Positions 58 to 4,143 of a stretch of DNA of 4,143 nt are shown in pieces. Positions within the stretch are counted from its first letter, which is position 1. The number at the start of each line of letters is the position of its first letter. The stretch comes from a virus (Duplodnaviria > Heunggongvirae > Uroviricota > Caudoviricetes): positions 1 to 4,143 of the IMG/VR virus record IMGVR_UViG_2671180878_000004. One strand, written 5' to 3'. The notes under the pieces were generated by a model. The model did no database searches. It was not told the origin of the DNA and was given only the letters and a program-made list of their open reading frames with translations. The translations under genes were made by a program, and so were the position numbers.

Positions 58-135
58 CTGAATCAGGGGAGGCCGGAATGTTATCTGGCATTTTTAGCAG
101 AGCCTGAATGCCATAATCACGGCTCCCGGAGTTGG

Positions 136-170
136 CCGTCAGTGGGTGACACTGGCGGTTTTTTTGTTTT
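136..170 (+). terminator. Rho-independent terminator (tR'-like late leader terminator, expected target of Q antitermination)
   Basis: Seen in sequence: 9-bp stem CCGTCAGTG (136-144) / CACTGGCGG (150-158) with one G-U pair and a 5-nt loop GGTGA, followed by TTTTTTTGTTTT (159-170). It sits directly upstream of the holin gene, as tR' does in lambdoid phages. Confidence 0.65.
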
Positions 171-215
171 TCTTTACTTTCATTTTCTGTCGGCGGTGAC
201 GGAGACATACATCAG

Positions 216-422
216 ATGGAAAAAATCACAACGGGTGTGTCATACACCACGTCAGCGGTGGGGACGGGATACTGGTTACTGCAGCTGCTGGACAAAGTCT
301 CTCCGTCCCAGTGGGTGGCGATAGGTGTGCTGGGGAGTCTGCTGTTTGGCCTGCTGACGTATCTGACAAACCTTTATTTCAAGATTAAAGAAGATAAGCG
401 TAAGGCGGCGCGGGGAGAGTAA
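216..422 (+). CDS. S: Class II holin, pinholin of the phage 21 S21 family (68 aa)
   Basis: Translation [68 protein letters not shown] is near-collinear with phage 21 S68 as recalled (two TMDs, conserved SPSQW...IGVLGSL...[11 protein letters not shown]...RKAARGE tail). GGAGA at 201-205 serves as RBS. First gene after the terminator. Confidence 0.9.
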
Positions 423-426
423 AGCG

Positions 427-771
427 ATGAAGAAAAAATACGAACTGGTTGTTAAAGGGATAAATAATTACCCGGATAAGATTACTGTTACTGTGGCACT
501 GGAAATTGGTGGGTATCCGTCACTGTTGTTGCCAGATGTGGCGATTAGTCTTGACCGTACTGAAGGTGCCACGCTGGAGTTTTACGAAGCTGAGGCGAAA
601 AAGCAGGCGAAGCAGTTTTTCATGGATGTTGCTGCCGGGTTATGTGAAGGGGATGGTCCGTTGCCGGAAAAGCGCCCCGTAATTTTAGAGGCGCAGGATG
701 TGTTGATAACCTACAGAGGAAAACTACCGGGAATAATTACTGGTTCTCTGAAGACTCCACCGCTGGCCTGA
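427..771 (+). CDS. Hypothetical 114-aa soluble protein between holin and endolysin (positional analogue of small DUF-type ORFs such as ydfR in E. coli cryptic prophages; not verified)
   Basis: ATG at 427 is 4 nt after the holin stop, with GGGGAGAG as RBS 9 nt upstream (translationally coupled layout). No TM segment or recognisable catalytic motif. Coding call rests on ORF length, RBS and context. Confidence 0.65.
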   Translation: MKKKYELVVKGINNYPDKITVTVALEIGGYPSLLLPDVAISLDRTEGATLEFYEAEAKKQAKQFFMDVAAGLCEGDGPLPEKRPVILEAQDVLITYRGKLPGIITGSLKTPPLA

Positions 772-821
772 AGACTTAACATATCCAGGGATTTGAAATC
801 GATAAACCCTGATAAATATCC

Positions 822-1355
822 ATGAACGCAAAAATCAGATACGGCCTGTCGGCTGCCGTTCTGGCGCTGATTGGTGCAGGGGCGTCTGCGCCTGAAATCC
901 TCGACCAGTTTCTTGACGAAAAAGAAGGTAACCACACCACGGCATACCGTGATGGTGCGGGTATCTGGACCATCTGCCGCGGTGCCATCTTGGTGGATGG
1001 TAAACCTGTCGTTCCGGGCATGAAGTTGTCGAAGGAAAAATGCGACCGGGTTAACGCCATTGAGCGTGATAAGGCGCTGGCATGGGTGGAGAAAAACATC
1101 AAAGTGCCGCTGACCGAACCCCAGAAAGCGGGGATCGCGTCATTCTGTCCGTACAACATTGGTCCCGGTAAGTGTTTCCCGTCGACGTTTTACAGACGAA
1201 TTAATGCAGGTGATCGAAAAGGTGCCTGCGAAGCGATTCGCTGGTGGATTAAGGACGGTGGCAGAGACTGCCGTATTCGTTCAAACAACTGTTACGGTCA
1301 GGTATCCCGTCGTGACCAGGAGAGCGCGCTGGCGTGCTGGGGAATCGACAGATAA
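822..1355 (+). CDS. R: SAR endolysin (signal-anchor-release lysozyme, T4-lysozyme/GH24 fold, R21 family)
   Basis: 177-aa product with an N-terminal Gly/Ala-rich weakly hydrophobic SAR segment (YGLSAAVLALIGAGASA) and catalytic-triad spacing E-x8-D-x5-T (EGNHTTAYRDGAGIWT) as in phage 21 R and P1 Lyz. Pairs with the pinholin upstream. No obvious Shine-Dalgarno ahead of ATG 822, which is the first start codon after an in-frame stop at 813. Confidence 0.9.
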   Translation: MNAKIRYGLSAAVLALIGAGASAPEILDQFLDEKEGNHTTAYRDGAGIWTICRGAILVDGKPVVPGMKLSKEKCDRVNAIERDKALAWVEKNIKVPLTEPQKAGIASFCPYNIGPGKCFPSTFYRRINAGDRKGACEAIRWWIKDGGRDCRIRSNNCYGQVSRRDQESALACWGIDR

Positions 1356-1511
1356 GAAGAATATTTTGCTGAAAAATGAGGTTTGCTCACACGGACGGAT
1401 AACACGAAATCCTGCGAACTGACAAAACCTAAGTGAATAAAAGTAAAAACCACGTTTGTTGGCAGCAAGCGGGGTTTTGTGTTTCTGACCTTGGATAAGG
1501 CAAGGGAGAAC

Positions 1512-1694
1512 ATGGAAAAGTATAAACGAATTCTGTTGAGGTTGACTATGAAAAACGGCCTTGAACTGAAAGCGCCAGTAACTGATGACATCAGCAGAGC
1601 ACAGGCTTTTGCTATTAAGTGGGTGGCGGTCGGTATTGCTGTGTCTCCGATGCTGTATGGGCTGGCAAAACTGGTCATTGCGTTGAAATCGTGA
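1512..1694 (+). CDS. Hypothetical small membrane protein (60 aa, C-terminal TM helix)
   Basis: ATG at 1512 preceded by AAGGGAG. Product [60 protein letters not shown] has a basic N-terminus and one C-terminal hydrophobic helix. The ORF track's GTG start at 1479 has a poorer RBS. No homolog recognised. Confidence 0.4.
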
Positions 1695-1706
1695 AGAGGA
1701 TTAAAC

Positions 1707-1838
1707 ATGTCAGACAAACTCATAATGCTGGCGAAGATCCTCTGTGTAATCGTCGGCATTTCATTTTCACTAATGCTGGTTGCTCTTTTTCTTTCCATGG
1801 GCTGGATGATGTTATCTTCGTCGGGGCTGCTGGGGTGA
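1707..1838 (+). CDS. Hypothetical hydrophobic peptide (43 aa, single TM)
   Basis: ATG at 1707 with strong RBS AAGAGGA 7 nt upstream. It starts 12 nt after the previous ORF's stop and ends 11 nt before the Rz start. Product [43 protein letters not shown] is almost entirely one TM helix. Absent from the ORF track, presumably because of a length cut-off. Confidence 0.35.
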
Positions 1839-1849
1839 GCATAAACCGA

Positions 1850-2308
1850 ATGCTTTCCGCGTTTACCGTTATTCTGCTGGTGGTCTGTGGTGCGCTTAGT
1901 CTGGGGCTGAATCATTACCGCGATAACGCCATCACCTACAAAGCGCAGCGCGATAAAAAAGCCAGAGAGCTGGAGCTGGCAAACGCAACCATTACTGATA
2001 TGCAGGTGCGCCAGCGCGATGTTGCTGCGCTCGATGCAAAATACTCGAGGGAATTAGCCGATGCGAGAGCTGAAAATGAAACTCTGCGTGCTGATGTTGC
2101 CGCTGGTCGTAAGCGCCTGCGGATCAACGCCACCTGCTCCGGTACCGTGCGTGAAGCCACCGGCACCTCCGGCGTGGGCAATGATGCCGCCGTCGAACTC
2201 TCTCCGGTTGCTGGACGAAACGTTCTCGGTATCAGAGACGGAATCATCAGCGACCAGGCTGCATTGAGAATGCTTCAGGAATATATCCGTACTCAGTGTA
2301 TTAACTAG
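1850..2308 (+). CDS. Rz: Rz i-spanin (inner-membrane spanin subunit, 152 aa)
   Basis: From ATG 1850 the product [65 protein letters not shown]... matches lambda Rz closely as recalled ([33 protein letters not shown]). N-terminal signal-anchor TM plus coiled-coil periplasmic domain. The 229-aa ORF-track version is an artefactual N-terminal extension. Confidence 0.9.
2061..2267 (+). CDS. Rz1: Rz1 o-spanin (outer-membrane lipoprotein), fully embedded in the +1 frame of Rz
   Basis: Product [39 protein letters not shown]... has a lipoprotein signal peptide with lipobox LVVSAC and a proline-rich mature region, as in lambda Rz1 (MLKLKMMLCVMMLPLVVVGC...CVKPPPPPAW). GAGGGA upstream of 2061. Start could instead be the Met at 2076. 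Confidence 0.85.
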
Positions 2309-2331
2309 TATTTTTGTTATCCGGAGAATGC

Positions 2332-2556
2332 ATGAAGAAATTACTGGTAACCGTAAAGCCTTTTCAGGGAACAATTCCGTTCCGTATTTTGCAGCGTGGT
2401 CGTGTTCTTGTTGAAGGTTCGTTCAGTGGTAAATGTACGCAATTACACTCCCGGACCTTTCAGGTGAATGCCACGAATGAAGAGCTAACCGTTGAGTGTA
2501 CGATGAATGCCGCTAAATGCCGTATGGTATCGGCTGCATTACAGCCAGTGTGTTGA
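2332..2556 (+). CDS. Hypothetical small Cys-rich protein (74 aa)
   Basis: ATG at 2332 with GGAG 5 nt upstream; the track's start at 2314 is TTG. Product MKKLLVTVKPFQGTIPFRILQRGRVLVEGSFSGKCTQLHSRTFQVNATNEELTVECTMNAAKCRMVSAALQPVC has four Cys and no TM. Occupies the Rz-to-cos interval where lambdoid phages carry morons (bor in lambda). Confidence 0.5.
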   Translation: MKKLLVTVKPFQGTIPFRILQRGRVLVEGSFSGKCTQLHSRTFQVNATNEELTVECTMNAAKCRMVSAALQPVC

Positions 2557-2815
2557 GCGACCTTATTATCCATGCGCGGTATTGTCGCCGTATTCCCGTA
2601 TTAACAGAGACCGCAGCCCGACAGGGAGACTCCTCTGCGCGAGTGTGCGGGGATAATCAAAAACGATACACACCGGGGTTTACCGCGTTAACGGAGCGCG
2701 GCGTTGTCCCCTCATGGTCGCTGGTCCGGTGCGATGGTGGAAGAAACTGGACTTTGTTGCAACTGATAATCATTATCATTTTCACGGGTCCTTTCCGGCG
2801 ATCCGGGCCGTTACG

Positions 2816-2827
2816 GGGCGGCGACCT
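2816..2827. other. cosN: 12-nt cohesive-end sequence GGGCGGCGACCT (terminase nicking site)
   Basis: Exact lambda cohesive-end sequence GGGCGGCGACCT, preceded by TTACG and followed by CGCGGGTTTTCGCTATTTATGAAAATTTTCCGG as at the lambda genome end junction (recalled). Lambda and phage 21 share this cohesive end. Sequence upstream (about 2690-2815) also resembles the lambda right end, including the cosQ region. Confidence 0.85.
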
Positions 2828-2864
2828 CGCGGGTTTTCGCTATTTATGAAAATTTTCCGGGGAA

Positions 2865-2878
2865 AATCATGTCGGTAC
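2865..2878 (+). repeat. cosB R3-like small-terminase binding site (AATCATGTCGGTAC)
   Basis: Matches the R1 copy at 11 of 14 positions, in direct orientation, exactly 100 bp upstream of R1. Arrangement R3 (direct), IHF, R2 (inverted), R1 (direct) mirrors lambda cosB, but the repeat sequence differs from the lambda R consensus. Confidence 0.55.
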
Positions 2879-2888
2879 TTCTCGAACA

Positions 2889-2901
2889 TAACTATTTGTT
2901 T
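2889..2901 (+). promoter_or_regulatory. Putative IHF site (I1-like) between R3 and R2
   Basis: TAACTATTTGTTT matches the IHF consensus YAANNNNTTGATW at 12 of 13 positions, followed by a T-tract. Lies between oppositely oriented R sites, as I1 does in lambda cosB. IHF sites are degenerate, so low confidence. Confidence 0.3.
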
Positions 2902-2923
2902 TTTCTAATATCGAATCCGTAAA

Positions 2924-2937
2924 GGTCCGACATGAAA
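2924..2937 (-). repeat. cosB R2-like small-terminase binding site (GGTCCGACATGAAA, inverted copy)
   Basis: Exact reverse complement of the R1 copy TTTCATGTCGGACC (14 of 14). Separated from R1 by a 27-bp partly palindromic spacer. Confidence 0.6.
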
Positions 2938-2964
2938 ACGCCTGAAAAAGTCATTTTCGGGCAC

Positions 2965-2978
2965 TTTCATGTCGGACC
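2965..2978 (+). repeat. cosB R1-like small-terminase binding site (TTTCATGTCGGACC)
   Basis: Third copy of the 14-bp motif, 24 bp upstream of the nu1 start codon, as R1 is in lambda. Confidence 0.6.
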
Positions 2979-3002
2979 CTGTATTTGTTGTGAGACTGTT
3001 TC

Positions 3003-3548
3003 ATGAAGGTTAATAAAAAGAAACTTGCCGAAATTTTCAAAGTGGATCCGCGAACGATTGAACGCTGGCAGTCTCAGGGGCTCCCTTGCGTCTCCGGAGG
3101 TGGTAAGGGCGTTGAATCTGTATTTGATACCGCCACGGCAATTCAGTGGTATGCGCAGAGGGAAGCTGATATCGAAAATGAAAAACTCCGTAAAGAGGTT
3201 GAGGATTACAGGGCTGCCAGCGAGGCAGATCTCCAGCCTGGGACTATTGAGTACGAACGCCATCGACTTACGCGTGCGCAGGCTGACGCCCAGGAGCTGA
3301 AGAATGCCAGAGACTCCGCAGAAGTGGTGGAAACCGCATTCTGTACTTTCGTGCTGTCACGGATCGCAGGTGAAATTGCCAGTATTCTTGACGGGATCCC
3401 TCTCTCAGTACAGCGGCGTTTTCCGGAACTGGAAAACCGACATGTTGATTTCCTGAAACGGGATATTATCAAAGCCATGAACAAAGCAGCCGCGCTGGAT
3501 GAACTGATACCGGGGTTGCTGAGTGAATATATCGAACAGTCAGATTGA
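3003..3548 (+). CDS. nu1: Terminase small subunit (gpNu1 / phage 21 gp1 type, 181 aa)
   Basis: 181 aa, the same length as lambda Nu1. N-terminal winged-HTH region [36 protein letters not shown]... is related to but clearly diverged from lambda MEVNKKQLADIFGASIRTIQNWQEQGMPVLRGGGKG... From about [18 protein letters not shown] to the C-terminus it is nearly identical to lambda Nu1 as recalled. Sits just downstream of cosB. Confidence 0.92.
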
Positions 3549-4143
3549 TATTCTGCGGCGTGATGTACGCGCCGGGCTGCGAGCCCTGTTCAGGCCGGAG
3601 CCACAGACTGCCGTTGAATGGGCGGATGCCAGTTACTATCTCCCGAAAGAATCCGCATACCAGGAAGGGCGCTGGGAAACACTACCCTTTCAGCGGGCTA
3701 TCATGAATGCGATGGGCAGCGACTACATCCGCGAGGTGAATGTGGTGAAGTCTGCCCGTGTTGGTTATTCAAAAATGCTGCTGGGTGTTTATGCTTACTT
3801 CATAGAGCATAAGCAGCGTAACACCCTTATCTGGTTGCCGACGGATGGTGATGCCGAGAACTTTATGAAAACCCACGTCGAGCCTACCATCCGCGATATT
3901 CCGTCGCTGCTGTCTCTGGCCCCGTGGTATGGCAAAAAGCACCGGGATAACACGCTCACTATGAAGCGTTTCACCAATGGTCGTGGCTTCTGGTGCCTGG
4001 GCGGTAAAGCGGCAAAAAACTACCGTGAAAAGTCGGTTGATGTGGCGGGTTATGATGAACTTGCTGCCTTTGATGAGGATATTGAACAGGAAGGCTCTCC
4101 GACGTTCCTGGGTGACAAGCGTATTGAAGGCTCGGTCTGGCCA
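3523..4143 (+). CDS. A: Terminase large subunit gpA, N-terminal 207 codons (partial, runs past the window end)
   Basis: GTG start at 3523 overlaps the last 26 nt of nu1, as in lambda. Translation [130 protein letters not shown]... is near-identical to lambda gpA as recalled. Open to the window end; missing from the ORF track because it has no stop in the window. Confidence 0.92.

Follow-up and report, generated by a model that had tools for sequence, protein, structure and literature searches.

The window examined here, a stretch of 4,143 bases, contains what is very probably (with a probability of roughly 0.88) a cos site that belongs to a lambda-like E. coli prophage and that is predicted from its sequence to have the packaging-initiation specificity of phage 21. 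As judged from its sequence, the element belongs to the long-characterised lambda/21 family of cos sites, within which it is a natural chimera that joins a lambda backbone to a 21 specificity. What is new here is the delimitation of a 21-type cassette of ~355 bp inside an otherwise lambda-type cos and terminase region. The cassette comprises cosB together with the codons for the DNA-binding domain of the small terminase subunit (TerS), and the two were exchanged as one unit. Binding, cleavage and packaging specificity at this cos are assigned by homology with the characterised systems.

ORF translations and Pfam matches place the window at the late-gene junction of a lambdoid prophage, with the genes in rightward order. 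A class II holin of the phage-21 type (216-422; Pfam Phage_holin_2_1) is followed by a DUF1327/YdfR protein (427-771), a lysozyme (822-1355), two small hydrophobic ORFs (1479-1694, up to 71 aa, and 1707-1838, 43 aa) and Rz (1850-2308). Neither of the two small ORFs matches a Pfam family, and their counterparts in related prophages are annotated as hypothetical proteins. An ORF nested within Rz in the +1 frame (2061-2267, probable start 2076) has a lipoprotein-like N-terminus that fits the spanin Rz1, and it is taken to be Rz1; it carries no annotation in the RefSeq relative. Between Rz and cos lies an ORF of 74 aa (2332-2556), which has no Pfam match and which appears in the O145 prophage annotation as the hypothetical protein WP_000735655.1. 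The cos site itself sits within a 450-bp non-coding stretch between this ORF and the TerS gene. The latter (3003-3548, plus strand; 181 aa, Nu1 family; Pfam Phage_Nu1, E = 5.9e-91) lies directly downstream of cos, and is followed by the 5' part of the gene for the large subunit, TerL (gpA family; 3523-4143, plus strand; Pfam GpA_ATPase, E = 4.4e-32), which runs off the window. The 21-type cosB module is seldom marked in genome annotations. Two frames of the window, 2517-2849 and 2714-2908, are open across cosN, and in the isolated phage IdasGreatGrand (PP925829) a CDS labelled 'hypothetical protein' at locus 2360-2638 likewise crosses cosN (locus 2532). These cosN-spanning ORFs are probably spurious gene calls, as the mature genome is cut inside them.

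The left part of cos is composed of cosQ, cosN and the I2 segment. cosQ, which acts in packaging termination (PMC4669245), is found as GGGTCCT at 2786-2792 (plus strand), 30 bp left of the top-strand nick; the block CGGGTCCTTTCCG is unchanged in every aligned cos region and falls within the box annotated as 'R4' in the phage 21 record M81255. The 12-nt cohesive-end sequence cosN, GGGCGGCGACCT, occupies 2816-2827, and the same 12 nt are present in lambda, in phage 21 and at 10 further loci. By analogy with these systems, the nicks would fall at 2815/2816 on the top strand and at 2827/2828 on the bottom strand, and the phage 21 genome record OL657228 begins at the first cosN base and annotates bp 1-12 as cosN. 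The I2 segment linking cosN to cosB, TATGAAAATTTTCCG (2845-2859, plus strand), matches the I2 annotation of M81255 (196-210) and is identical to that of lambda. A preliminary description of this DNA, made from its letters alone, had called cosN and its immediate flanks lambda-type. This holds to the right of the nick, where bp 1-45 are exactly those of lambda and phage 21 departs at bp 18, 24, 42 and 44; in the left flank cosQ is kept, but position 2799 and positions 2806-2809 differ from lambda.

Further to the left, 8 bp from cosQ and 52 bp from the nick, lies a perfect 15-bp palindrome, TGATAATCATTATCA (2764-2778), which is identical to the Fur 7-1-7 consensus. The 19-bp Fur box GATAATGATAATCATTATC is matched at 17 of 19 positions on the minus strand at 2765-2783, with 0.00 such matches expected in shuffled sequence. 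Lambda and the E. coli MS 145-7 prophage have the palindrome equally far from cosN, and it recurs with no or one mismatch in five other cos regions; it is degenerate in phage 21 and absent from phages IdasGreatGrand and 1W. Judged by title and abstract, none of the five papers in which TGATAATCATTATCA occurs deals with phage cos, and two are on Fur or iron uptake.

To the right of I2, cosB is built around three copies of a short motif, two of them direct and one inverted. Phage 21 provides the annotated reference, with records X02501, M81255 and OL657228 marking cosN, R3, I1, R2 and R1, and M81255 additionally I2 and I0. R3, the TerS site closest to cosN (AATCATGTCGGTACTT; 2865-2880, plus strand), is identical at 15 of 16 bases to the annotated R3 of phage 21 (AATCGTGTCGGTACTT; bp 50-65). 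R2 lies in inverted orientation at 2922-2937 (minus strand) and, read on the plus strand, is AAGGTCCGACATGAAA, the same 16 bases as in phage 21 (bp 107-122). R1 (TTTCATGTCGGACCCT; 2965-2980, plus strand) agrees with its counterpart (TTTCATGTCGGGCCTT; bp 150-165) at 14 of 16 positions, so that in the alignment 45 of the 48 R-box bases are identical. The 14-mer TTTCATGTCGGACC that had first drawn attention to the repeats is present exactly where it was reported, at 2924-2937 (minus) and 2965-2978 (plus). The third, R3-like copy (AATCATGTCGGTAC, 2865-2878) had been credited with 11 of 14 matches; the count is 10 of 14, and a search allowing up to three mismatches misses it. All three copies nevertheless carry the exact 9-mer TCATGTCGG, which occurs three times against 0.03 expected, a number reached in none of 200 shuffles. 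Similarly, no 9-mer of any kind occurred in three copies inside 120 bp in 300 shuffles.

The layout of these repeats is equally close to that of the characterised sites. The distance from R3 to R1 is exactly 100 bp, as had been described, and in the annotation of phage 21 these two boxes are equally far apart (216 and 316 in M81255). Counted from the nick, the cores are positioned at 54 (plus), 112 (minus) and 154 (plus) in the window, compared with 55, 112 and 155 in phage 21 and 54, 114 and 155 in lambda. When the region is aligned with the phage 21 and lambda cos sites, the repeats fall exactly on the 21 R boxes, and cosB as a whole is ~88% identical to phage 21 and ~60% to lambda. Thirteen cos regions were compared, and every one retains the three repeats at equivalent positions with R2 inverted; the preliminary description would have been refuted by a lack of such conservation in related cos regions, which was not observed.

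An IHF site and a T-tract had also been proposed between R3 and R2. The candidate site, I1 (AAACAAATAGTTA; 2889-2901, minus strand), matches the consensus WATCAANNNNTTR at 12 of 13 positions and is accompanied by a run of six T at 2899-2904. Matches to this consensus number 4 across the window against 3.5 expected, which is not significant alone, and the consensus was dropped as stand-alone evidence. I1 is accepted only because it occupies, at bp 74-86 from the nick, exactly the position given to I1 in the phage 21 annotation; its sequence differs from that of 21 by a single change. Every element of the proposed arrangement, a lambda cosB layout of R3, I1, R2 and R1 with another recognition sequence, can thus be located. 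The presence of R2, R1 and I1, with terL downstream, led to the rejection of a simple cosB of the PICI or N15 type. The cos sites of N15 and of Gram-negative PICIs share the conserved cosQ and cosN and possess an R3-equivalent at ~bp 48-65, but are without I1, R2 and R1 (PMC4669245; PMC9026076), whereas the cosB of the window is tripartite.

The packaging specificity of such a site can be predicted from a small number of contacts. Lambda and 21 have a common cosQ and cosN, and each packages its own DNA more than 1000-fold better; the discrimination depends on the R boxes and on the helix with which TerS recognises them, and the discriminating contacts identified genetically are bp 56 and 59 of R3 and TerS residues 20 and 24, the Glu24 of lambda clashing with the G:C pair at bp 56 of 21 (PMC4669245; PMC9026076). 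The R3 of the window has G at each of these two positions, bp 56 (2871) and bp 59 (2874), as in 21, while lambda has T and C. Residues 17-24 of its TerS read RTIERWQS, with Glu20 and Ser24, which is the helix of 21, compared with RTIQNWQE in lambda. The R boxes, the discriminating base pairs and the discriminating residues thus agree in supporting the earlier suggestion that the specificity is 'probably 21-type'.

This correspondence between site and reader extends beyond lambda and 21. Five specificity types were compared (lambda, 21, window, PhiR5_1 and MS145-7), and across them the three R copies change in concert with each other and with the TerS recognition helix, which is the expectation for binding sites of one co-evolving protein. 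Lambda and Stx1_8100 combine the R-box core CGTTTCC with the helix RTIQNWQE, the phage 21 group and the window CRTGTCGG with RTIERWQS, PhiR5_1 CATGTCR with RTIDRWQT, and the E. coli MS 145-7 prophage CAGATCC with RTITAWQS. The last two, at locus ~2617-2810 of PhiR5_1 and ~431-615 of the MS 145-7 prophage, have the R3-I1-R2-R1 layout with other R cores, and their cosB types may represent additional packaging specificities.

The terminase genes change allegiance within TerS. Its residues 1-70, the N-terminal winged-helix DNA-binding domain, are identical to 21 at 59 of 70 positions and to lambda at 42, whilst residues 71-181 match lambda at 108 of 111 positions and 21 at only 56. At the DNA level, the TerL gene is ~95% identical to lambda and ~65% to 21. 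[quoted passage not shown] TerS also has structural matches in the PDB: the 54 residues of entry 7lwr, a solved DNA-binding domain, are residues 1-54 of phage 21 TerS, to which the window TerS is identical at 47 of 54, and further matches are 1j9i, of 68 residues, and 6hn7, which aligns through lambda TerS sequence. Among the papers listed for the structures 7LWR, 7LXS and 7LW0, none could be recognised by title and abstract as their primary report.

Compared element by element, the window shares with phage 21 the cosQ and cosN, the order, orientation and spacing of R3-I1-R2-R1, bp 56 and 59 and the TerS recognition helix. It differs from 21 in being lambda-like at the four variable positions of bp 1-45, in an inverted R2-spacer-R1 block (see below), in three residues of the TerS wing, in the lambda-type TerS 71-181 and TerL, and in a cosB diverged to ~88% identity. 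[quoted passage not shown]

The divergence from phage 21 raises an alternative, namely that this lambda-like cosB has a third specificity, akin to that of 21 but functionally distinct, and would be used inefficiently by the terminases of both 21 and lambda. Compared with phage 21, the cassette shows ~12% divergence and TerS differs at 11 of its first 70 residues. In the wing (residues 31-39) the window has SGGGKGVES, 21 SKGSKGIES and lambda RGGGKGNEV, so that residues 32, 34 and 37 depart from 21, and the PhiR5_1 (CATGTCR) and MS145-7 (CAGATCC) types demonstrate that other cores exist within the same architecture. At R3 bp 54 the window has A for the G of 21, and in R1 another 2 positions depart from 21; together with the wing, these differences make a shifted or narrowed specificity possible. 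Such an interpretation is nonetheless very unlikely. The window and 21 have the same recognition helix, the positions known to discriminate (bp 56 and 59 in R3, residues 20 and 24 in TerS) are of the 21 type (PMC4669245), the A-for-G change moves R3 towards the sequence of 21's own R2 and R1, and the conserved Lys35 of the wing is retained. The specificity predicted for the window is therefore best described as that of phage 21.

The limits of the 21-type segment were mapped from mismatches against the prophage of O145:NM strain FWSEC0002 and against Stx1_8100, and from sliding-window identity to lambda and 21. Among complete E. coli genomes, no match to the whole window was found at 99% identity or above; the best whole-window relative is the FWSEC0002 prophage, at 97.7% identity over 93% of the length, and the missing part of this match is the cassette itself. 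The FWSEC0002 prophage has 1 mismatch over window positions 450-2860 and is ~98% identical from ~3215 onwards. Between 2860 and ~3215, it is ~36% different, its cosB and Nu1 N-terminus being those of the lambda type instead. The Stx1a phage Stx1_8100 repeats this mismatch pattern. In the sliding-window comparison, positions 2861 to ~3190 are 21-like, whereas from ~3200 the sequence is ~95% lambda-like and ~65% 21-like. The cassette is accordingly placed at 2861 to ~3215 (plus strand, ~355 bp), covering cosB and TerS codons 1 to ~71, and its DNA is ~88% identical to phage 21.

Both ends of the cassette lie in sequence that lambda and 21 have in common, with cosQ-cosN-I2 on the left and the coding sequence for the TerS central domain on the right; the crossovers map to the conserved cosN-I2 segment (2860/2861) and to conserved TerS coding sequence (~3215). 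From this position between shared segments it is concluded that homologous recombination exchanged the site together with the protein that reads it, and sequence comparison identifies cosB and the TerS DNA-binding domain as one exchanged unit of ~355 bp. The exchange agrees with the domain plan of TerS, in which the DNA-binding domain is N-terminal and the C-terminal half binds TerL. A chimera of identical design is known from the laboratory: the lambda-21 hybrids 21hy51 and 21hy33 of the Feiss laboratory combine the cosB of 21 and a chimeric TerS with the TerL of lambda, the 5' half of the small-subunit gene being derived from gene 1 of 21 and the 3' half from lambda Nu1, and these hybrids are functional and 21-specific (PMC4669245; PMC9026076). 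The chimera in the window differs from them in that it is natural, its 21-type part is related to phage 21 but diverged from it, and its crossovers were not engineered.

In addition to being binding sites, R2 and R1 form a dyad that had been suggested to adopt a cruciform or hairpin. The pair constitutes a 25-nt inverted repeat, 88% complementary, with a 5-nt loop, in which the partly palindromic R2-R1 spacer (2938-2964) provides the inner stem, composed of an A-run, the loop and a T-run flanked by G:C pairs. Such a structure is thermodynamically possible: the single-stranded DNA fold of 2918-2984 reaches -23.6 kcal/mol (z = -9.6) and the RNA fold of 2918-3010 reaches -39.6 kcal/mol (z = -6.3). 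No independent support for its formation was found. All specificity types preserve the dyad together with its inner stem of A-run and T-run, two-sided changes being seen at 10 of 23 pairs, and one terminator-like hit falls within it (2940-2962). It could be argued from this that nucleic-acid structure is the main function of the R2/R1 dyad and protein binding secondary, either as a DNA cruciform or as a hairpin in the late mRNA upstream of terS that would act as a terminator, a stabiliser or a modulator of translation. However, the pairing of the outer stem and its covariation follow automatically from R2 and R1 being two inverted copies of one site for one protein. The inner stem is partly conserved, and neither phage 21 nor lambda forms it perfectly. 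As for the terminator-like hit, a single one is what chance would give (0.7 expected) and ACTTTCATGT makes a poor tail, and late transcription has to pass cos to express the head genes, as it does in lambda, where it reads through the site. A scan for promoter-like sites in cos found none, and a terminator or promoter function within cos was set aside. A primarily structural role for the dyad is thus extremely unlikely, and the R2/R1 structure is treated as a by-product of the symmetry of the sites bound by TerS.

The same symmetry appears to have permitted an inversion. Compared with phage 21, the 27-bp spacer is identical at 17 of 27 positions when read directly and at 24 of 27 as its reverse complement; for the whole R2-spacer-R1 block (2922-2980) the corresponding values are 47 of 59 and 54 of 59, and BLAST likewise reports a minus-strand match. 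One orientation of the block is found in the window, in IdasGreatGrand and in two E. coli prophages (strains 8178 and 88-3493), and the other in phage 21, in phage 1W and in three E. coli prophages. An active inversion switch was examined with a synthetic version of 2861-3040 in which 2924-2978 was reversed, searched against 5426 complete E. coli genomes. No flipped copy of this sub-lineage was present in these genomes: the best match, at 95.0%, was the native sequence with its 9 differences, whereas the native query (2861-3040) returned 371 records at 99% or above. These genomes thus give no sign of an active switch, and the inversion relative to phage 21 is regarded as a fixed difference that arose long ago between the inverted R boxes. 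It remains quite unlikely that either the wing (GGG for KGS at 32-34), the R-box flanks and the inverted block together define a sub-specificity distinct from that of 21, or the block is occasionally flipped through R2 and R1 with functional consequences.

The 21-type module is common in E. coli. Window positions 2780-3240, which include the 21-type cosB, are covered to at least 80% in 1153 of the 5426 complete E. coli genomes. Many lambdoid prophages of E. coli are defective, and only 4 kb of the present one are visible, so the cos pattern might be a decayed remnant in a prophage that no longer packages its DNA. Against such decay, the lysis and terminase ORFs of the window are all intact, many O157:H7, O103 and O121 genomes contain the 180-bp cosB at 100% identity, and the isolated phage IdasGreatGrand has cos and terS, and with them the cassette, at ~98% identity. 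Decay is consequently a very unlikely explanation, and the site is better regarded as the cos of a lambda-like prophage with 21-type specificity.

By analogy with lambda and 21, packaging would be initiated at this site as follows. TerS dimers would engage the three R boxes (core CATGTCGG) through their winged helix-turn-helix domains, whilst IHF would bend the DNA at I1 and thereby bring R3 and R2 face to face. [quoted passage not shown] Packaging would then run rightward and stop at the next cosQ-cosN.

The significance of the site beyond annotation is small. As a cos, it marks the genome ends and the packaging direction of the prophage, and its predicted membership of the 21-type specificity group would decide which co-resident helper phages or terminases can mobilise the prophage. 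Were the sub-specificity considered above to be real, the many prophages of Shiga-toxin-producing E. coli that carry the cassette would form a separate packaging-compatibility group. The clean swap of ~355 bp between near-identical prophages provides a natural case of a binding site and its reader moving as a unit, as the lambda-21 hybrids predicted.
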